64,000 nucleotides of DNA from Parcubacteria group bacterium (GTDB lineage: Bacteria > Patescibacteriota > Minisyncoccia > Portnoybacterales > UBA2143): NCBI GenBank assembly GCA_013203625.1, contig JABMPX010000005.1:2305-66304 (forward strand), written 5' to 3'. The translations under genes and the position numbers were made by a program. Below, piece by piece: positions 16,302-39,066 of the stretch; the first letter of the stretch is position 1, and the number at the start of each line of letters is the position of its first letter. The notes beneath the pieces were generated by a model. The model was not told the DNA's origin and did no database searches. It worked only from the letters and a program-made list of their open reading frames with translations.

Positions 16302-16616
16302 ATGTTTGCAGTAATTAAAACAGGTAGTAAACAGTATTTGGTTTCGCCTGGCGATAAAATCAAAATAGAAAAATTAGAAACAGACGAAGGCAAAGAAATC
16401 ATCTTTGACCAAGTTTTATTATTGGAAAAAAATAAGGCGTTAAAAATAGGCGACCCCTTAGTTAAAGGCGCTAAAGTCACGGCGAAAGTTTTAAAACAAG
16501 ACAGAGCTAAGAAAGTGATTATTTTCAAATACAAGCCCAAGAAACGCTACCAAAAAAAAATGGGCCATCGTCAGCCCTATACAGAAGTAGAGATATTAAA
16601 GTTTGAGGTTTTTTAA
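16302..16616 (+). CDS. rplU: 50S ribosomal protein L21
   Basis: MFAVIKTGSKQYLVSPGDKIKIEKL is the canonical L21 N-terminus. Confidence 0.9.
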   Translation: MFAVIKTGSKQYLVSPGDKIKIEKLETDEGKEIIFDQVLLLEKNKALKIGDPLVKGAKVTAKVLKQDRAKKVIIFKYKPKKRYQKKMGHRQPYTEVEILKFEVF

Positions 16617-23417: not shown

Positions 23418-24134
23418 ATGAAAAAGATAATTGTGGTAGCAATGGTGGCATTGGTATTGGGATTTAGTTTATCAACTTTTGCGGCTGAACCTAATTGGAA
23501 GCATCATATTGTTAAAAAAGGCGATACCCTTTCGGGTTTTGCTTATTCTTGTAGGGTTTCTATTGCGAAAATGATTGAATGGAACCCTAAAACAGGAATA
23601 AATCTTATTTATCCGGGCCAAAAACTTAGGTATTTGGTACCACCGGATATAATAGATGTTATTGGCCGAATCAATGAGGTGATTGGGACAATGGATACTA
23701 TTGTGCCTATAATTCAGCAAAGCGATAGTGAAATCAAGAAAATTATCAGGGAAAATCATGACGGTCTTACCCGGCAAATTGGCCAGGTTCAAGCCAAGCA
23801 GAAACAGAATACTGATATTACTGATATCAAAGATACAAGGATTATGGATCTTGCAATTCTTGCGATCTCTTTGTTTGTTGTAGTTTGTATTGTGTGGTTT
23901 CTTATTTTCCGGTTTAGAAAAGAAGGAAATAATGTAAAAATTTGCCCTGATGATCTTGATAAGATTTATAAGATTACCAATGGTGAAATTTCTGGCCCAG
24001 AAAATTATAAGTGTTGTTTTTGCAACAAGATGATCCAGAAACACAATCTTGCTCGTCATGTAACAAAGAGATGTAAAAAGTCACCGTATTACGAACAAAA
24101 AATCAATAAGGAGGAGGTATCAACAAATGAGTAG
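23418..24134 (+). CDS. exported LysM-domain protein with one TM and a cytoplasmic Cys/His-rich tail
   Basis: Signal peptide MKKIIVVAMVALVLGFSLSTFAAEP; LysM (HIVKKGDTLSGFAY...IYPGQKLRY); TM LAILAISLFVVVCIVWFLIF; tail CPDD...KCCFCNKMIQKHNLARHVTKRC. Confidence 0.6.
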   Translation: MKKIIVVAMVALVLGFSLSTFAAEPNWKHHIVKKGDTLSGFAYSCRVSIAKMIEWNPKTGINLIYPGQKLRYLVPPDIIDVIGRINEVIGTMDTIVPIIQQSDSEIKKIIRENHDGLTRQIGQVQAKQKQNTDITDIKDTRIMDLAILAISLFVVVCIVWFLIFRFRKEGNNVKICPDDLDKIYKITNGEISGPENYKCCFCNKMIQKHNLARHVTKRCKKSPYYEQKINKEEVSTNE

Positions 24135-24987
24135 ACTAACAAAGACCGGTTTATTGCTGATAATGGTGGTTTTGTTGTTGACGCTTTTTAGTGCTTGCGC
24201 CAGACGGAATCTTATTATGTCTGAGAAACACATTAATAAAATTCCTGAAGTTGGCCAGGGCTATAGCGTACTTTGGTGTAATTTTCATCCAATTCTTTTG
24301 ATGTCAGAAGGAATTGGCATTAATCATGCTCTTCATTTTTTTGGAAAGGATGAACCGTACATTGCAGTGAAGGTGCGTGAGAATAAACAAAATTTTCAGA
24401 TGATGGTAATCGTGACCGAGGAAGTCAATTTTGCCGAAGATAGAGCGATGATTCCTTCCCGAAGTGGTGAACGTTTTTATTCTGTTGATGGGAAAGATGT
24501 TTTCAGTGAAAATGGCTATTTAGTCCCTAAGTTTGCGTGGACAAAGATAAAGCCATTAGCTGATACTGGGATTGAGATTTGGCAAAATGTTTTACCTGGT
24601 TCTGAAAGAGATCAAAAAGTAAAAAAGATTTTAGCAGGAATAGGCAAGGGCCTTGATCAAGAAATCCCTGGATTATTTGATCGAGTGATGTCTCAAGTTG
24701 CGAAGATTACAACTGAAGATATTGTATTAGCAGGAGCAACAGATTTTACCAGTTTGTTTGGTCTTTTTGGTATCCGGATTTGGGCAGTTGTTAATGCAAT
24801 TGTCCAGAAGGCCGATTTGTCTTTGCCATTTTACGATACGGCAGTAGTTAATAGATTTCAGTTGGCTACTGCTCTTGAGCCATTTAACTCTTTAACCAAA
24901 GAGCAAGAAAGGGCTATTAATAAATGGTTAAAAGCTCTTGAAGGGTGGCAGAAGAGAGTAGATGCTTATGATGCGCAAATTCAATAA
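24127..24987 (+). CDS. hypothetical lipoprotein
   Basis: N-terminal signal with lipobox-like LFSAC. Overlaps the upstream gene by 8 nt. No known catalytic motif. Confidence 0.5.
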   Translation: MSRLTKTGLLLIMVVLLLTLFSACARRNLIMSEKHINKIPEVGQGYSVLWCNFHPILLMSEGIGINHALHFFGKDEPYIAVKVRENKQNFQMMVIVTEEVNFAEDRAMIPSRSGERFYSVDGKDVFSENGYLVPKFAWTKIKPLADTGIEIWQNVLPGSERDQKVKKILAGIGKGLDQEIPGLFDRVMSQVAKITTEDIVLAGATDFTSLFGLFGIRIWAVVNAIVQKADLSLPFYDTAVVNRFQLATALEPFNSLTKEQERAINKWLKALEGWQKRVDAYDAQIQ

Positions 24988-25058
24988 CTAACCAAAAATT
25001 ACCGTAGAAATAAGTAAACTTTATTAAAGTCAAAACCGACTTTAGAGATAACGCTGAA

Positions 25059-25087
25059 GCCCTTAAAAACTTAAAGCTTTTAAGGGC
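25059..25087 (+). promoter_or_regulatory. 10-bp stem hairpin in the 210-nt intra-operon spacer
   Basis: GCCCTTAAAA-acttaaagc-TTTTAAGGGC, flanked by direct ACGCTGAA copies. No U-tract. Confidence 0.3.
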
Positions 25088-25197
25088 CGACGCTGAATCC
25101 AGACGAGGTAAGACAGAAATAGAGTTTCAATTTTTTATTTCAAGGTAGTTTATGGCATGTAACTCCAAAAAATTTATAGAAAGGAGGCAAGAAAGAT

Positions 25198-26829
25198 ATG
25201 AGAATGAAAAGGTTGTTGTTCATGCTGTTAATGATGTTTTTTGCCAGTGTAAACCTTGCCTCTACTAGTCAAGCAGGCAAGATTTATACAGTAGTGGAAC
25301 CCAAAATAACCATAAAGAAGTATAAAGTAGTTGACAAAGATACATTGTCGCAAATATGTTCTCGTTTTTACGGGAATGGCAGGTCGTCTGCTTATAATGC
25401 TTTAGCGGCTTGGGGAAATCAAGTAACACATGAAAAACTTTGGGTTTTTGTAGGACAGATTTTAGAGATTCCCTTTCCTCTGATTTTAAACCAGAACGAA
25501 GCTGGTATTAATCCGACAATTCTGCCAATTGAAGAAACAACCAAATTGACAATTAAACAATTAAAACAAAGTTTAACCCAAACTGATATCCAGGCAACTA
25601 TTCCTAATAATCTTTCAAAATCAATTATTTCTGGCTTAAAAACTTCTCAGAAATTTCATAATTTAAACAATGAAATTGTAGCAGCTGTTAGCTTTGGCAA
25701 AAAAGCGCAGGGCTGGACCATGATTAACGTTAAAAAAGAGTTAATTGGGAAATCCACATCTTCAACTATTAATAAAAATTTTGAGATTAGAGCCACTTTG
25801 CCCGATTGCAATAACCTATATTTACAGTTAATTCGGGTTTCTGAGAAAAAGCTTAATGCCAAAAGGATGCTATTACGACTTCCACCCCCACCTCCATTTC
25901 CGCCAATTTTAAAAGCCGAAATTCAAAAGGTCTTACTTGCTGAATATGCAAAAATTATAGCTAAATATGGTTGGGATTGGGATTCCACAGGGGGTTATTT
26001 CAAAGAGCGTTATACGGACGGAAACAATGTCAAAGGTTGGTGGCAGTCAAGCGTTCTTTATCCTTTTGTCTCCAATGACATTGAGGGCAATGAATGGTCA
26101 TTTGGTCTGGCTTATACTATTAGAGATTGGTCTGGGGAAACCGGTGAAGTAAACCCGTTCTATTATAATGGCATAGTGAATATTGAGTCATTGGCTGGAC
26201 GCTTTCGGGATAGCGACCGAAATTGGGAAATTCTTGGCCGAGTTGGACTTGGTCAACGCGAAGATAGTGGCTATTTAACTAATGAGTGGGGTCGTTTTGA
26301 CACGGAGCAAGAAACAAACATTTTTAATGCTTATTCTTCTGCTGAATACAGCGAAAATAAGACGTGGTTTTCCAAAATACGTGTTTCTGGCGAAGTAGAA
26401 ATAGGGCTCAATGAAGAGAAAGAAAGCTATTGGACTGACCAATGGGATGGTCGACAAAAGTTGGATAATCAACCTGATGATAAAGATAGATATGAATTTG
26501 CTCTATACTCTGATGTTTTTACTTTTGACGAAGACAAGAATATTCAGATTTGGAGCGAATTTCGAAGCACTTACTATAATGAAGAATATAAATGGGGGAA
26601 CGGAATAAAAGGTGGTTTATCATTCTTAAATGGTTCTTTGAAAGTAGGTCTTGGCTATACAGCATGGAACCAGAGCAATGCAGATTCTACTGGTTTTTAT
26701 GGAGAGGTGAATCTGTATAATCTTTACCATTGTGCTTTCGGCTATCCAAAAAGATATTCTGATGAAGATATTTTTGTTCCAATTAACCAGAAGGAAAAAG
26801 AGGAAGAGATTTTAGAAATGTTAATGTAA
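25198..26829 (+). CDS. secreted protein: N-terminal LysM-like domain, poly-proline linker, C-terminal beta-barrel-like domain
   Basis: Signal peptide ending ASTSQA; YKVVDKDTLSQICSRFYG...VGQILEIP (LysM-like); LRLPPPPPFPP; C-terminal ~300 aa Gly/aromatic-rich with alternating hydrophobics. GGAGG RBS. Confidence 0.55.
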   Translation: MRMKRLLFMLLMMFFASVNLASTSQAGKIYTVVEPKITIKKYKVVDKDTLSQICSRFYGNGRSSAYNALAAWGNQVTHEKLWVFVGQILEIPFPLILNQNEAGINPTILPIEETTKLTIKQLKQSLTQTDIQATIPNNLSKSIISGLKTSQKFHNLNNEIVAAVSFGKKAQGWTMINVKKELIGKSTSSTINKNFEIRATLPDCNNLYLQLIRVSEKKLNAKRMLLRLPPPPPFPPILKAEIQKVLLAEYAKIIAKYGWDWDSTGGYFKERYTDGNNVKGWWQSSVLYPFVSNDIEGNEWSFGLAYTIRDWSGETGEVNPFYYNGIVNIESLAGRFRDSDRNWEILGRVGLGQREDSGYLTNEWGRFDTEQETNIFNAYSSAEYSENKTWFSKIRVSGEVEIGLNEEKESYWTDQWDGRQKLDNQPDDKDRYEFALYSDVFTFDEDKNIQIWSEFRSTYYNEEYKWGNGIKGGLSFLNGSLKVGLGYTAWNQSNADSTGFYGEVNLYNLYHCAFGYPKRYSDEDIFVPINQKEKEEEILEMLM

Positions 26830-26851
26830 TACCAAAACAGGAGGCATCAAA

Positions 26852-27514
26852 ATGAAAAGGTTATTTAAATTAATTGCAATGATTGCAACCGCATTTTTTT
26901 TGATTAGTGGATGCGCAGCTATTCAAAAAAAGGGTACAACAAAAAACTGGGAAAAGGAAGTAAAGGAGATAATGAACACTGGTGTAACCGAGGCAGATCC
27001 TAATGTTTTGGCCAAAGATAGTAAATCTGTGATCACGGTTGAGGACATAGGTGACAGGGTTTATTATACGATTACTAATCCGTGGTTAACCCCCAAAGGG
27101 GATACCAAAGGCAAGAATTTAAAGCGGGCCGTTAAACTGAAAATCGCCTCGGGGATTCTGGATGCAAAAGGGAAAAACCCATATTTTACCATGGTAGAAG
27201 TCAAAGATAACAAGGCCGAATTTAGTCTTCCGAATTTTGCCCGGGCCAAGGGTGTAAAAGTTCCTGTGGTTGAACATGGCTGGGGATATGGCCAAGCAGC
27301 TGACGGAACTGTTGGTTATTTGGTTCTTGACCCCAATAGCCCATGGGTTGTATATAAGACAAAAGCTTTTGGAGGGCATCTGACAGAGTCAAGGGACAGA
27401 GCTGATCTGGAAACATTGGCCATAGGGTCAGTTATGTATCCAGGTAAACCAACCGCGCCATTAAAGGCGATTGGAAAAGGCAAGTTGAAACAGGGTATGC
27501 ACCCTGAATTATAA
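26852..27514 (+). CDS. hypothetical lipoprotein
   Basis: Signal plus lipobox FLISGC, GGAGG RBS. No known catalytic motif. Confidence 0.55.
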   Translation: MKRLFKLIAMIATAFFLISGCAAIQKKGTTKNWEKEVKEIMNTGVTEADPNVLAKDSKSVITVEDIGDRVYYTITNPWLTPKGDTKGKNLKRAVKLKIASGILDAKGKNPYFTMVEVKDNKAEFSLPNFARAKGVKVPVVEHGWGYGQAADGTVGYLVLDPNSPWVVYKTKAFGGHLTESRDRADLETLAIGSVMYPGKPTAPLKAIGKGKLKQGMHPEL

Positions 27515-34395: not shown

Positions 34396-35487
34396 ATGCC
34401 TAAAGATTATTATGAAATTCTTGGCGTTCCTCGCAGCGCGTCAGAGCAGGAAATAAAAAAGACATATCGAAAATTAGCTCTTAAATATCATCCTGATCGC
34501 GCGCCAAAAGATAAAAAAAAGGAATACGAAGAAAAATTTAAAAAAATCAGCCAGGCCTACGGGGTTCTTTCTGATAAAGACAAAAAAGCTCAATATGACC
34601 AATATGGTCAGACATTTGATGGAGCGCAAGGAATGCCTTTTGGCCAACAAGATTTCCATTCTTTCCATGAAGCATTTGGTGGACAGGATATTTTTGAAGA
34701 TTTAGGTTTCGGAAGAATTTTTGAAGAGATGTTCGGTTTTAGGCAAAGAACAGGAACAAAGCCAGATGTTCAATATGGCCAGGATATTTCTTTAGATATG
34801 GAAATTGATTTAGAAGATTCTTTTCATGGCATTGAAAAAGAGATTAGTTTGCGAAAAATGGTTGTTTGTCAAGAATGCAATGGCAAAGGAGGCAAGTTGC
34901 TGAAAAAATGTTCAGCTTGCGAAGGAAGTGGGTATGAACAAGTAAGTAATAGAAGCTTATTTGGTATTTTTATTCAACAAAGACCATGTTCTAAATGTTA
35001 TGGCAGGGGAGAAATGCCTGAAAAAACTTGTGCAGAATGCCGCGGCCAAGGACGAATCAAACAAGCTGAAAAAATTAAAATAACTGTTCCTTTTGGCATT
35101 GAAAACGGACAGGTTTTAAAACTAACAGGCCAGGGGGAAGCAGGCCCTTATAATGTGCCAGCTGGCGATTTGTTTGTTAATATTCATATACGGCCTCATA
35201 AGCATTTTCAGCGCCAGGGAGTAAATTTAATATTAAATCTAGATATTAACTTTTCTCAAGCTGCTTTAGGTGATAAAATAGAAATACCATTATTAGATGG
35301 AAAAGTTAATTTAAAGATTCCGTCTGGCATTCAGCCAGGAGAGATGATAGAGTTAAAAGGCAAGGGCATGCCTAAATTATACGGAAAAGGACAAGGAAAT
35401 TTAATTGTTAAAATTCAAGTAAATGTTCCTAAAAAAGTATCTCGCAGACAGAGAAATATTATAGAGGAGTTAAAAAAAGAAATTTAA
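34396..35487 (+). CDS. dnaJ: chaperone DnaJ
   Basis: J-domain [32 protein letters not shown], four CxxCxGxG zinc-finger repeats, C-terminal domains. Confidence 0.9.
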
Positions 35488-35492
35488 TTTTT

Positions 35493-36029
35493 ATGCGTGA
35501 GTTTTTAACTAATTTTCATATTGGCGCGGCTTCAGGATGGGATTTATTTATTATCCTGATTTTTCTGATTGCTGTTCTTGTTTATGGTTTTTTCTTGGGC
35601 CGCAATAGAATGATTATTTTGCTTTTAAGCAGTTATTTTTCTTTGGCTATTATTCAAGTTTTTCCGTGGATAAAATTAAGCTCTTTGGGCTGGTTAGGTA
35701 TTGATGCAGAACCTTCATCTTCCTTGAAAATTTTAATCTTTTTGGGTATTATTTTATTATTATATTTTTTAATTCCTCGTTCTATACTTACTTCAACTTT
35801 AAGGATTAAAAGAAGGGGAGAGGCGTCTTGGCTGCGATTGTTTATTTTAAGCATTGCTCAAGTTGGGTTATTAGCTATGATTATTCTTTCTTTTTTATCA
35901 ATCCAAGTAATTAGCGATCTTGGCTATTGGATTAAAAAGATATTTATTGGTCCAGAAGCTCAATTTGTCTGGATTACTCTGCCGATTATAGTTATAATTT
36001 TAATGCGCAGGAAGAAAAAAGCGGAATAA
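35493..36029 (+). CDS. hypothetical integral membrane protein
   Basis: 4-5 TMs, no motif. Confidence 0.4.
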   Translation: MREFLTNFHIGAASGWDLFIILIFLIAVLVYGFFLGRNRMIILLLSSYFSLAIIQVFPWIKLSSLGWLGIDAEPSSSLKILIFLGIILLLYFLIPRSILTSTLRIKRRGEASWLRLFILSIAQVGLLAMIILSFLSIQVISDLGYWIKKIFIGPEAQFVWITLPIIVIILMRRKKKAE

Positions 36030-36035
36030 AAATAA

Positions 36036-36109
36036 GCGCCGTTAGCTCAGCCCGGTAGAGCAATTGCCTTTTAAGCAACTGGTCGGGGGTTCGAATCCCT
36101 CACGGCGCA
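36036..36109 (+). tRNA. tRNA-Lys (anticodon TTT)
   Basis: GCGCCGTTAGCTCAGCCCGGTAGAGCA..., anticodon loop CTTTTAA, T-arm GGTTCGAATCCC, 3' ACGGCGCA. Confidence 0.85.
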
Positions 36110-36131
36110 CTGGGAATATATGAATTTAATG

Positions 36132-36160
36132 TTGACATTAGTTTTAGTTGTTAGTAAAAT
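36132..36160 (+). promoter_or_regulatory. promoter TTGACA-N17-TAAAAT for hicBA
   Basis: TTGACA 36132-36137, TAAAAT 36155-36160. The hicB ATG lies only ~9 nt downstream. Confidence 0.4.
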
Positions 36161-36168
36161 ATCAATAT

Positions 36169-36417
36169 ATGAATAAATCTTTTTTATCTAAAATTAAAGA
36201 CAATCGTTTTCCTTTAGTGGTTGAAAAAGACGAAGATGGTTTTTATGTGGTTGAATGCACTCTTTTTAAGGGTTGTTATTCTCAAGGGAAAACATTAGAT
36301 AAGGCCTTAGAAAATATTAAGGAGGTTATTGAGCTTTGTTTGGAGGAAAAAGAAAATCAGGAAATAATAAAATCATATAAGCCTAAAGAATTAAGTCTGC
36401 ATACTATTACGCTTTAA
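36169..36417 (+). CDS. hicB: type II antitoxin, HicB family (UPF0150-type minimal form)
   Basis: GFYVVECTLFKGCYSQGKTLDKALENIKEVIELCLEE matches the HicB N-domain signature (GCvsqGeT.eEA..n..eAi). Confidence 0.7.
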   Translation: MNKSFLSKIKDNRFPLVVEKDEDGFYVVECTLFKGCYSQGKTLDKALENIKEVIELCLEEKENQEIIKSYKPKELSLHTITL

Positions 36418-36420
36418 TTT

Positions 36421-36645
36421 ATGGCGAAATTACCATCAATTTCTGGAAAAAAAGCAATAAAAACATTTGAAAAAATTGGCTACCAAATAATTAGAAAAAA
36501 AGGTAGTCATTTTCGTTTATATCATCCAAATAAAGAGCCAATAACTATTCCTAATCACAAAAATTTAGCTAAAGGGCTTTTAAGAAAAATATTAAGAGAT
36601 GCGGAAATTTCTGTTAAAGAGTTTATTGACTTGCTTAAAAGATAA
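36421..36645 (+). CDS. hicA: type II toxin, HicA family mRNA interferase
   Basis: GKKAIKTFEKIGYQIIRKKGSHFRLYHPN carries the HicA GSH signature and dsRBD-like length (74 aa). Starts 3 nt after hicB. Confidence 0.75.
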   Translation: MAKLPSISGKKAIKTFEKIGYQIIRKKGSHFRLYHPNKEPITIPNHKNLAKGLLRKILRDAEISVKEFIDLLKR

Positions 36646-36768
36646 TTTCAGAGGCCGTGCACATTACCACTAAAAATTGACAGGATAATATATTTATGTT
36701 ATCCTATTTTTAATAGTTCATAGTAGTTCATAAAAAACTGAATAAAAAACTTTAGACAGGAGGTTGTT
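36646..36768 (+). promoter_or_regulatory. regulatory region: ATTTCAGAGGCCGTGC motif, TTGACA, 22-bp palindrome GGATAAtatatttatgTTATCC, direct repeats, AGGAGG RBS
   Basis: Motif 36646-36660; TTGACA 36677-36682; palindrome 36683-36704; AGTTCATA x2 (36715, 36725); ATAAAAAACT x2 (36730, 36742); AGGAGG 36758-36763. Confidence 0.35.
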
Positions 36769-37074
36769 ATGGAAAAGGTTCTTTTAAGAAATGGAAGTGA
36801 AATAGACAAGAATATTGTTGTTGCGATAATGGTGGGAATGGAAATGTTATTGAAAACCGAAAATCCAATGGACAAACACATACTTCTTTATGAGCTGAGA
36901 GAAAGATGTAAAAATCCGAATCATGAATTCTACGCTGATTCGGAAGAAAAACTGAAACAGTATGGATTAATCCAATCCATTGGAATCCATGAATCGGCTC
37001 GTAATATTATTCTGTCAGCCATCAAAGAAGAAGAAGGTGGCGCTATAATGACCTGGGAATCTCCCATGGCATAG
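36769..37074 (+). CDS. hypothetical protein (101 aa, no recognisable family)
   Basis: Strong AGGAGG RBS. GC and codon usage differ from flanking genes. Confidence 0.5.
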   Translation: MEKVLLRNGSEIDKNIVVAIMVGMEMLLKTENPMDKHILLYELRERCKNPNHEFYADSEEKLKQYGLIQSIGIHESARNIILSAIKEEEGGAIMTWESPMA

Positions 37075-37111
37075 AGGGTTAACTCTTAACGAAAAATAAG
37101 GAGGAATTGTG

Positions 37112-37549
37112 ATGGAAAAAGATTGTCCGTTTTGCAATACAGAACAGATGGAAAAAAGTGCGATTTTTCCTAATCCTGACAAATACGAAGATTGGGAAAC
37201 ACAAGGAAACGTTTTTGTTATAAATGTCCTTGCTCCTGCCATGAAAGGACACTGTATGGTCATTCCCCGGGGACATGTAGAATGTCTTTCTGAATTATCG
37301 TCAACCGAAGTTTCAGAACTGTTCCGAGTTGCTGAGAGAACTATTGAAAAATTGAAAGGCCACTTCGGATACGAAGCATTTACGCCTTTCTGGCTTGTGG
37401 GAAGATATAGAACCGTGCCTCATTTTCACCTCCACATTGTTCCGGACATGATTATCAAAAGCCGGAGCCAAGAGGAAAAGGAGGCAACTAAACTTAACCC
37501 TGAACAGAGAGAAAATTTGGTTCAGGAGTTAAGAACAGTCTTATCTTGA
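37112..37549 (+). CDS. HIT (histidine triad) family nucleotide hydrolase/transferase
   Basis: N-terminal CPFC zinc motif and histidine triad VPHFHLHIVP. AGGAGG RBS 8 nt upstream of ATG 37112. Confidence 0.8.
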   Translation: MEKDCPFCNTEQMEKSAIFPNPDKYEDWETQGNVFVINVLAPAMKGHCMVIPRGHVECLSELSSTEVSELFRVAERTIEKLKGHFGYEAFTPFWLVGRYRTVPHFHLHIVPDMIIKSRSQEEKEATKLNPEQRENLVQELRTVLS

Positions 37550-37565
37550 AAGAAACTTTCATTAA

Positions 37566-37604
37566 GCGCCTAGTTCCTAAATTTGGAACCAAGGCGCTTT
37601 TTTT
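37566..37604 (+). terminator. rho-independent terminator
   Basis: GCGCC..GTTCC-taaattt-GGAAC..GGCGC hairpin followed by TTTTTTT. Confidence 0.6.
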
Positions 37605-37612
37605 ATTAACAA

Positions 37613-37650: not shown

Positions 37651-39066
37651 ATGAAACGAATTTTAAGCGCAAAAACAATTGAAAAATCGGGTGAAGAGGT
37701 TAAATTGAGCGGCTGGGTTCATAATCGACGGGATCATAGCAAGATTATTTTTATTGACTTGCGTGATAAAAGCGGATTAATTCAGCTTGTTTTTTTGCCT
37801 GCAAACAAAGAATGTTATGAATTAGCTAATTCTTTAAGAAACGAATGGGTGATTGAAGTGATTGGCCAGGTCAATAAACGGCCAAAAGGAATGATTAATG
37901 AAAAAATTCCCACTGGACAAGTAGAAATAGAAGTTAAAGAACTAAAAATATTAAATAAAGCTAAAACTCCGCCTTTTGAAATTAACGAAGAGCAAGATAA
38001 AGACAAAAAAGAAGTCAATGAAGAAGTTCGGTTAAAATACCGTTATTTAGATTTACGGCGCCAGAAAATGAGAAATAATTTAGTTATCCGGCATAAAGTC
38101 ATTAAACTAATCAGGGACTTTATGGATAAGAAGGGCTTTATTGAAATAGAAACGCCAATTTTAACTAAATCAACGCCAGAAGGAGCCAGGGATTTCTTAG
38201 TTCCAAGCCGTGTTCATCCAGGGAAATTCTATGCACTGCCGCAAGCTCCGCAGCAATTAAAACAATTATTAATGGTTGCTGGCATGGAAAAATATTTCCA
38301 AATTGCCCGTTGTTTTAGAGACGAAGATTTACGTGGAGACCGTCAGCCTGAATTTACCCAGTTAGATGTTGAAATGTCTTTTATTAAGCAAAAAAATATT
38401 TTAAATCTAATTGAAAAATTAATTATTAAAATTGTTAAAGAATTAGTTTCTTTTGACAAAAATTTATCTAAAAAACTTACTTTTAATCCATTTTTACGGC
38501 TTGATTATCAAGAAGCAATTAAAGAATATAATACTGATAAGCCGGATTTGCGAGAAAATAAAAAAGACCCCAATGAATTAGCTTTTGTTTGGGTCTTAAA
38601 TTGGCCGCTTTTTGAATGGAATAGCGATGAAAAAAGATATGATTCCTGCCATCATATTTTTACTGCGCCCAAAGAAAAAGATTTGCCTTTATTAGATAAA
38701 GAACCATTAAAAGTTCATTCATGGCAGCATGATTTAGTTCTTAATGGGAATGAAGTCGGCGGAGGAAGCATTAGAATCCATCAAGCAGATATTCAGGAAA
38801 AAATATTTAAACTGGTTGGCTTAAAAGATGAAGAGATAAAAGAAAAATTTGGCCACTTGCTTAGAGCATTTGAGTACGGAGCGCCTCCTCATGGAGGGAT
38901 TGCTTTAGGGCTTGACCGCTTTTTAATGACTCTTTTAAATGAAAAAAGCATTCGTGAAGTGATTGCTTTTCCTAAAACAGGCGATGCGCAGGATTTAATT
39001 ATGGAAGCGCCTAATAAAGTTAGTCCAGAACAATTAAAAGAATTGAGTATAAAAATTGATTCTTAA
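37651..39066 (+). CDS. aspS: aspartate--tRNA ligase, bacterial-type catalytic core lacking the GAD insertion domain
   Basis: N-terminal OB-fold; FRDEDLRGDRQPEFTQLDVEMSF (bacterial AspRS motif 2 region); CHHIFTAP; GLDRF motif 3. Only 471 aa. Confidence 0.8.
   Translation: MKRILSAKTIEKSGEEVKLSGWVHNRRDHSKIIFIDLRDKSGLIQLVFLPANKECYELANSLRNEWVIEVIGQVNKRPKGMINEKIPTGQVEIEVKELKILNKAKTPPFEINEEQDKDKKEVNEEVRLKYRYLDLRRQKMRNNLVIRHKVIKLIRDFMDKKGFIEIETPILTKSTPEGARDFLVPSRVHPGKFYALPQAPQQLKQLLMVAGMEKYFQIARCFRDEDLRGDRQPEFTQLDVEMSFIKQKNILNLIEKLIIKIVKELVSFDKNLSKKLTFNPFLRLDYQEAIKEYNTDKPDLRENKKDPNELAFVWVLNWPLFEWNSDEKRYDSCHHIFTAPKEKDLPLLDKEPLKVHSWQHDLVLNGNEVGGGSIRIHQADIQEKIFKLVGLKDEEIKEKFGHLLRAFEYGAPPHGGIALGLDRFLMTLLNEKSIREVIAFPKTGDAQDLIMEAPNKVSPEQLKELSIKIDS

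Follow-up and report, generated by a model that had tools for sequence, protein, structure and literature searches.

A probable accessory-gene hot spot between tRNA-Lys and a conserved HIT-aspS pair in a Parcubacteria genome, with an intact-looking hicBA module and a member of an unannotated protein family

The Parcubacteria contig JABMPX010000005.1 carries, directly after a tRNA-Lys gene, a run of four small genes: a hicB-hicA toxin-antitoxin pair, an open reading frame (ORF) of 101 codons (ORF101) and a gene for a HIT-family nucleotide hydrolase. The question raised by this locus is whether the four genes arrived together as one tRNA-targeted islet, as a sequence-only reading had proposed, or whether the cargo is smaller and the rest belongs to the chromosome. 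It was addressed in a 64-kb stretch of the contig, called the window in its entirety, and all coordinates are window positions; its GC content of 32.5% is that of a low-GC Parcubacteria metagenome-assembled genome (MAG). The answer is that the locus is probably a small accessory-gene hot spot situated between tRNA-Lys and a HIT-aspS pair conserved in the clade, where HIT is a core gene and hicBA and ORF101 are the cargo. A gene for a 178-aa membrane protein flanks the locus upstream and aspS flanks it downstream, and everything between them lies on the + strand, as follows.

36036..36110, + strand: tRNA-Lys gene (anticodon UUU; ARAGORN, and Rfam tRNA at 69.3 bits); the variable slot is bounded on the left by its 3' end
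36111..37093, + strand: variable segment of about 983 bp with hicB, hicA and ORF101, delimited by blastn and alignments against the related contig L006
36132..36160, + strand: sigma-70-like promoter TTGACA-17-TAAAAT, matched at 11 of 12 positions, 8 nt 5' of the hicB ATG
36169..36417, + strand: hicB, predicted antitoxin of 82 aa (PF15919, E 1.1e-8)
36421..36645, + strand: hicA, predicted toxin of 74 aa (PF07927, E 1.2e-18)
36677..36705, + strand: second promoter-like site TTGACA-17-TATCCT with an upstream TG (10 of 12 positions), overlapping an imperfect palindrome at 36682-36705
36714..36751, + strand: two close pairs of direct repeats in the ORF101 5' leader (TAGTTCATA twice and ATAAAAAAC twice)
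36769..37074, + strand: ORF101, small acidic protein whose family is unannotated and associated with mobile elements, with an AGGAGG site upstream
37112..37549, + strand: HIT-family nucleotide hydrolase (PF01230, 46.5 bits), with an AGGAGG site upstream
37564..37606, + strand: intrinsic terminator of the HIT transcription unit (dG -19.5 kcal/mol, z -5.2, followed by T7)
37651..39066, + strand: aspS, aspartyl-tRNA synthetase (PF00152, E 1e-121), the conserved right-hand neighbour, outside the islet

Almost all of the sequence features on which the earlier proposal was built are present (tRNA, promoter, gene pair, 101-aa ORF, HIT, ribosome-binding sites, GC, palindrome, repeats and terminator), including the near-consensus promoter straight after tRNA-Lys. 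An Rfam search of 35.8-37.8 kb returned the tRNA and no other RNA family, and ORF101, HIT, HicA and HicB have no paralogues elsewhere in the window.

The extent of the cargo was determined from relatives, whose contigs were obtained through exact-protein look-ups of the few homologues. L006 and L007 have the order dnaJ, 182-aa membrane protein, tRNA-Lys, a TTGACA-17-TATAAT promoter, HIT, a hairpin terminator and aspS, with no genes in the tRNA-HIT gap. Blastn against L006 gave homology over 35401-36110 and again from 37094, a point just 5' of the ribosome-binding site of HIT, and the alignments with L006, L007 and L002 all lose homology exactly at base 36110. Where the window has 983 bp, L006 carries 110 bp of promoter; because the L006 tRNA-Lys leads directly to this promoter and HIT, the variable islet comprises only the approximately 983 bp from 36111 to 37093. 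A further arrangement, read from L002 together with L001, places a gene for a 194-aa membrane protein after the tRNA-Lys 3' end, followed by a hairpin terminator, an L006-like promoter, an ORF101 homologue of 58% identity named ORF98, and HIT. Finally, L008 (1-230) and L011 (323-1212) carry genes of an IS3-type insertion element (helix-turn-helix and rve) on the opposite strand, immediately 5' of HIT. Together with the hicBA and ORF101 of the window, the slot therefore occurs with four kinds of content. Contigs of the L008 lineage are prone to break at the IS3-type element.

The same relatives establish that HIT is not part of the cargo. Its orthologues in L006-L013 keep their position upstream of aspS, the two genes also adjoin each other in L003, and the order HIT-aspS-dac-mraY-ftsW-murG-gltX-C39 peptidase is the same in L008-L010 and in the window. 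The identity of HIT to its window counterpart is 69% in L006/L007 and 58% in L008-L010, and the neighbouring genes show similar values between lineages (75-77% for aspS, 71% for the upstream membrane protein and 60% for dac). As synteny is conserved and divergence is in step with the neighbours, HIT is a vertically inherited core gene, and its assignment to the islet is withdrawn.

The elevated GC content that had drawn attention to the ORF101/HIT pair was confirmed: HIT has a GC of 0.413 (z +2.8), the second highest among 69 window ORFs, and ORF101 has a GC of 0.369, with a z of +2.2 for GC at third codon positions (GC3) and a GC3 value like that of HIT. The HIT orthologues, however, have a GC of 0.416-0.417 (L006 and L008), and this common value indicates an old property of the gene and not a recent arrival. 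By comparison, hicB and hicA, with a GC of 0.27-0.29, are near the bottom of the window ORFs. Nor is HIT the sole compositional outlier, since a gene run at 23418-27514, located 5' of a cluster for glycan synthesis (Wzy_C, radical SAM, glycosyltransferases), has a likewise raised GC3; it contains a 220-aa ORF (26852-27514) with the top GC of the window (0.425), for which no Pfam family was recorded. The comparison with relatives therefore splits the proposed islet in two, as HIT and aspS form a core synteny with a GC excess common to the HIT orthologues, and the hicBA-ORF101 segment is the part that varies.

The HIT protein exceeds the PF01230 cutoff of 21.5 bits by a wide margin, and a CPFC zinc motif and an HFHLHIV triad can be read in its sequence, while its NCBIfam matches fall far under their cutoffs. 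The closest solved relatives are NitFhit (1ems, 9e-11), a microsporidian HIT protein (3r6f) and human Fhit, with Ap4A phosphorylase and Hint-like chains matching lower, so that the protein appears nearest to the Fhit branch. Like the hydrolases of that branch (NitFhit 1ems, human Fhit 1fhi and E. cuniculi HIT 3r6f), it has the HIT domain, the HxHxHxx triad and an N-terminal CxxC; unlike them, it belongs to a small, divergent, lineage-specific subfamily with a charged C-terminal tail of about 30 residues, one lineage of which has HxHxQ. This lineage is represented by the L008 orthologue (378-824, P0005), in which HFHFQ replaces HFHLH and the third His has become Gln, as in the GalT/Ap4A-phosphorylase branch, which hints at a change of chemistry within a small subfamily. 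The HIT proteins retrieved by a metagenome scan with the HIT alignment were all distant (24-32% identity), and none of them added a syntenic relative. HIT is a housekeeping gene and does not partner ORF101 as toxin or immunity factor; it may reasonably be inferred to clear dinucleoside polyphosphates or nucleotide adenylates, which its conserved position beside aspS fits.

This leaves the adjacency of ORF101 and HIT, whose genes are separated by 37 nt, to be explained. In L006/L007 and L008-L013, HIT is present and ORF101 is not, and no HIT was found near approximately 17 distant ORF101 homologue arrangements, of which 11 (in L014-L028) were screened by phmmer and six (in L044-L052) by gene tables and an ORF list. 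The adjacency is thus lineage-specific, given that no distant homologue has a HIT neighbour, and the proposal that ORF101 and HIT form a toxin/immunity or signal-degrading module fails for want of co-occurrence. Most simply, the arrangement reflects insertion of ORF101 into the HIT leader; ORF101 would be co-transcribed with HIT.

Several observations weigh against the hot-spot reading or qualify it. All relatives are short metagenomic contigs, and a single Joint Genome Institute (JGI) sample group supplied three of the four slot states. With only three clusters at 90% identity among 5.8 billion proteins, the HIT subfamily is very rare, and its GC excess in all lineages suggests that HIT itself was acquired by the ancestor of the clade. 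Neither an att site nor an integrase is visible as an insertion route for hicBA. Moreover, ORF101 and HIT are both high in GC and GC3, lie close together and each have a strong AGGAGG, and their junction is 77% identical at the nucleotide level over 415 bp in a second lineage (L001; blastn), so a functional link between the two may exist in this clade. The distribution of ORF101 may reflect either two gains or a loss in L006.

An alternative is that ORF101 and HIT were an ancestral operon of the clade with cooperating products (ORF101 being, for example, a regulator or adaptor), from which L006 lost ORF101 by a deletion between leader repeats, so that only hicBA is recent. The homologous junction in the window and L001 and the similar GC3 of the two genes are in its favor. 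In L001, imperfect direct repeats, GGAGTTTTTTAACATTCA and AGAGTTTTAACACTTA, stand on either side of ORF98, and a ribosome-binding site comes after each; L006 retains a single copy of the repeat, as expected after a repeat-mediated deletion. These repeats fit an insertion equally well, however, and the more distant L008-L013 lineage has an insertion element 5' of HIT and no ORF101. Furthermore, the ORF101 family elsewhere is never beside HIT and is found in phage and integrase contexts. An ancestral operon is accordingly judged unlikely, and insertion into the leader of a core gene is retained as the preferred reading.

A separate observation concerns the starts of the two genes, which lie behind similar AGGAGG leaders and specify proteins that open alike: both begin with MEK in the window (36755-36782 and 37096-37123) and both with MGK in L001 (812-845 and 1146-1178). 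This could stem from duplication of the HIT start region at insertion, from gene conversion or from a preferred start context.

The model first proposed, in which a single tRNA-targeted islet spans all 1.5 kb, HIT included, and ORF101 and HIT are a second module under an operator, fares worse. It would account for the GC and GC3 raised in ORF101 and HIT alike, for their adjacency in two lineages, for the overlap of the palindrome with the -10 element of the promoter-like site, and for a weak PADLOC match of HIT to the ThsC HIT-family model (1e-4). That match is only generic, and PADLOC returned nothing credible for ORF101. The one-islet model is largely refuted already by L006 and L008: HIT occupies the same position without ORF101, syntenic with aspS, in L006/L007 and L008-L013, it has diverged in step with its flanks and shares its GC excess with its orthologues, and the distant ORF101 homologues examined (L014-L028 and L044-L052) have no HIT nearby. 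The signs of integration are missing as well. A copy of the tRNA-Lys 3' end, which might have marked an att site near the right end of the islet, is found nowhere in the window, where a 23-mer (up to 3 mismatches) and a 14-mer (up to 2 mismatches) matched only the tRNA itself; no integrase is present among the called genes within 10 kb on either side, nor in the ORF list for 34-40 kb. Of the tRNA-adjacent islet, there remain the presence/absence polymorphism that starts at the tRNA-Lys 3' end and the intact-looking hicBA, without HIT, att repeat or integrase, and the original one-islet version is considered very unlikely.

The proposed operator was also evaluated. The palindrome AGGATAATATATTTATGTTATCCT (36682-36705) has 10 of 12 positions paired and could fold as a hairpin (dG -9.6, z -3.4); UAUUUUUA comes directly after it. 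However, the window has 48 inverted repeats of equal quality versus 37 +/- 7 in simulated sequence, and as repeats of this kind are not rare in such AT-rich DNA, the palindrome alone is weak evidence for an operator; the hairpin at 36682 may serve as an operator or as a weak terminator of hicBA, or it may have neither function. The direct repeats, with TAGTTCATA at 36714 and 36724 and ATAAAAAAC at 36730 and 36742, are unusually clustered, as two of the 20 close direct-repeat pairs in the whole 64 kb are inside this stretch of 40 nt. The elements named as a repressor operator are therefore real, and the palindrome among them is statistically ordinary. The 123-bp spacer between hicA and ORF101, in which they lie, is not conserved in L001, and the second promoter region (36677) has no significant similarity to the promoter region of the relatives.

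The strong terminator said to close the HIT unit is well supported by its folding energy and T7 tract. It was not called by the consensus scan and was found by folding, and an equivalent hairpin stands 3' of HIT in L006 and L008. A copy of this hairpin (L006 4082-4157; window 37564-37606) with 80% identity occurs at L001 684-759, corresponding to L002 773-848, where it is placed after the gene for the 194-aa membrane protein and 5' of the ORF98 promoter. The displaced copy suggests a rearrangement, or a terminator that acts as a repeated element.

The first component of the cargo is the hicBA pair. In this family, RNA is cleaved by HicA, and the N-domain of HicB binds HicA directly and blocks it. 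HicA of the window matches PF07927 with 67.4 bits (cutoff 27), is basic (isoelectric point, pI, 10.4) and aligns with the solved chains 1whz (a stand-alone small HicA-like protein of Thermus), 9svk, 6g26 and 4c26, with G28-S29-H30 over their GSH/GGH; it would be a small ribosome-independent RNase, with His30 as the predicted catalytic residue. HicB, acidic with a pI of 5.4, has 82 aa from the ATG or 89 aa from an upstream TTG, and it matches PF15919 with 35.7 bits (cutoff 27) over positions 1-55 of the 123-position profile only, in addition to a HicB-like match to phrog_497. It is thus reduced to a partial N-terminal RNase-H-like domain, and the 27 residues that follow gave no helix-turn-helix (HTH), ribbon-helix-helix (RHH) or Phd match; among solved structures it comes closest to TTHA1756 of Thermus (2yzt), a stand-alone protein of 67 aa, and to HicB (6g1c), and for the pair HicAB complexes are also among the nearest structures. 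HicB would neutralize HicA by direct binding through this domain and, lacking a DNA-binding domain, should be unable to repress the operon itself through DNA binding.

The pair is compact, with the antitoxin gene first and 3 nt between the hicB stop and the hicA start, as had been described, and neither gene has its own Shine-Dalgarno sequence, so that the translation of hicA is probably coupled to that of hicB. Transcription would start at the strong promoter immediately after the tRNA, whose -10 element ends 8 nt before the ATG (36155-36171), and because this distance is so short and a Shine-Dalgarno sequence is absent, the mRNA on which hicB is translated would have no leader or almost none. 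A local alignment of the hicB promoter with the L006 tRNA-HIT spacer scored 19 versus 13.2 +/- 2.2 for shuffled sequences (p ~0.017), which is suggestive only, and the promoter may be orthologous to the L006 HIT promoter, that is, the former promoter of HIT. If this homology is real, hicBA was inserted just 3' of what used to be the HIT promoter and has taken that promoter over, which would also explain a nearly leaderless hicB without a Shine-Dalgarno sequence.

The reversed gene order and the absent DNA-binding domain had been regarded as unusual, but they define Class 2 of the type II hicBA modules, in which hicB precedes hicA and encodes, in 63-103 codons, a HicB that has no DNA-binding domain (Gerdes 2024, mBio 15:e03293-23; PMC10865869). 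Classes 1 and 2 are the most prevalent classes, and their regulation is unexplained; truncation artefacts were excluded for the sister Class 1, and the size range of Class 2 is equally uniform (Gerdes 2024, PMC10865869). By its gene order and domain content, the pair is classified here as a compact, apparently genuine and intact-looking Class 2 module: hicB comes first, the genes nearly abut, and the 82-aa HicB and 74-aa HicA with its conserved His depart from the class in nothing. What differs is the setting, namely a host from the Candidate Phyla Radiation (CPR), a position right after a tRNA and a promoter 8 nt from the start codon. With the classical hicAB systems of E. coli, Y. pestis and B. 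pseudomallei (Classes 3 and 4 of Gerdes), the pair has in common the HicA fold, the neutralizing N-terminal domain of HicB and, presumably, the mechanism of toxin inhibition, whereas its gene order is reversed and its HicB is devoid of a C-terminal HTH or RHH domain, through which the classical operons are autoregulated. That hicBA is instead a decayed remnant, inactive and without present function, in which a truncated HicB lost its DNA-binding domain, is barely credible, for although the match to less than half of the Pfam profile and the two missing Shine-Dalgarno sequences could be read in this way, HicB proteins of this size and architecture constitute a large, actively evolving class (Gerdes 2024, PMC10865869), both frames are intact, HicA keeps its GSH motif, and identical hicBA copies are present on contigs from three samples.

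The second component, ORF101, was described from the outset as belonging to no recognizable family, and this description has held up. No Pfam or NCBIfam match was found at E<=1, a sequence-profile search of the PDB gave nothing under E 0.3, and Foldseek searches against the PDB (with two models) and BFVD gave nothing under E 0.1. Likewise, ORF101 and 113 family members have no counterpart among the Pfam, NCBIfam, PHROGs or PADLOC families, and cultured phages and plasmids yielded no tblastn match to either of two family members. Nevertheless, ORF101 is a real gene of an undescribed, unannotated family, as demonstrated by the homologue P0002 (58% identical), by an exhaustive profile search that recovered 241 family clusters at E<1e-3, mostly stand-alone proteins of 95-115 aa, and by a confident fold model; its conservation, which had been questioned, is thereby settled. 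The AlphaFold2 model, built on a 113-sequence alignment, has a predicted local distance difference test (pLDDT) score of 96.6 and consists of a beta-hairpin, four helices and a second beta-hairpin. The family of roughly 100-aa proteins (about 241 clusters at 50% identity) has the consensus VxLKNGxE...YELxxKCxNPxH...GxxHxSxRNIVLSA...SP. A universal metal site in the family was considered and is unlikely, since C47, H52 and H74 are found in only about 80% of members and are replaced by Ala or Tyr otherwise. A 104-aa ORF after tRNA-Gly (16302-16616) was also rejected as a family member, as its N-terminus reads as ribosomal protein L21 and it has no match to the family profile.

A few family members are tandem repeats inside larger proteins. 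P0007 (570 aa), P0023, P0021 and P0058 (2561 aa) have two to four tandem family domains, or a C-terminal one in very large proteins without Pfam domains, and other family domains carry N-terminal membrane anchors or long extensions. The multi-domain proteins could be effector-like proteins of host-associated bacteria.

The genomic contexts of the family, for which the genome-collection scan was run with a 9-sequence subset of the alignment, are those of mobile DNA. Phage-like surroundings were found in L021 (PDDEXK, AAA_24, PolA, QueF), L048 (RecT, YqaJ) and L044 (a run of small ORFs), a tyrosine integrase adjoins the homologue in L049/L050, and L051/L052 are viral contigs of IMG/VR. Other homologues adjoin recO in two Patescibacteria (L025 and L026), and the one in L014 is beside a ParE toxin-antitoxin pair and tRNA-Glu. 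ORF101 is therefore a stand-alone accessory gene of a family that travels with phages and integrative elements.

Proximity to tRNA genes recurs in these contexts. In addition to the window (36036-37074) and L002 (1-1215), where the family gene is within 1 kb of tRNA-Lys, single family genes are situated 71-221 nt 3' of tRNA-Glu, tRNA-Gly or tRNA-Ser in L014 (3801-4294), L023 (292-725) and L028 (4691-5306), three unrelated loci, one of which is from a Gammaproteobacteria MAG. By a rough estimate, about 3-5 of 17 family loci are adjacent to a tRNA versus approximately 4% expected, which is above chance. A bolder extension would be that the family, by repeatedly landing 3' of tRNAs in Patescibacteria and Proteobacteria, represents a new host-takeover, anti-defence or tRNA-linked factor, captured here perhaps into the HIT operon for the same nucleotide or aminoacyl-adenylate chemistry; this is a tentative suggestion and must be regarded as doubtful.

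Returning to the hot spot, the slot resembles tRNA-targeted islands and integrative elements in that its cargo starts exactly at the tRNA 3' end and varies among relatives. Unlike them, it has no integrase, duplicated tRNA 3' end or att site, the segment is shorter than 1 kb, and its right edge is inside the leader of a core gene.

The main outcome of this analysis is the correction of an over-reading, as HIT turns out to be a housekeeping neighbour of aspS and the toxin-antitoxin pair is of a common, catalogued class. The locus provides a case, resolved to the base pair, of a tRNA-side intergenic slot in the tiny genomes of the CPR that has received four different cargoes with no visible integrase. 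The only real novelty of the locus is the unannotated ORF101 family, which, being small, structurally confident and associated with mobile elements and tRNAs, could repay experimental study.

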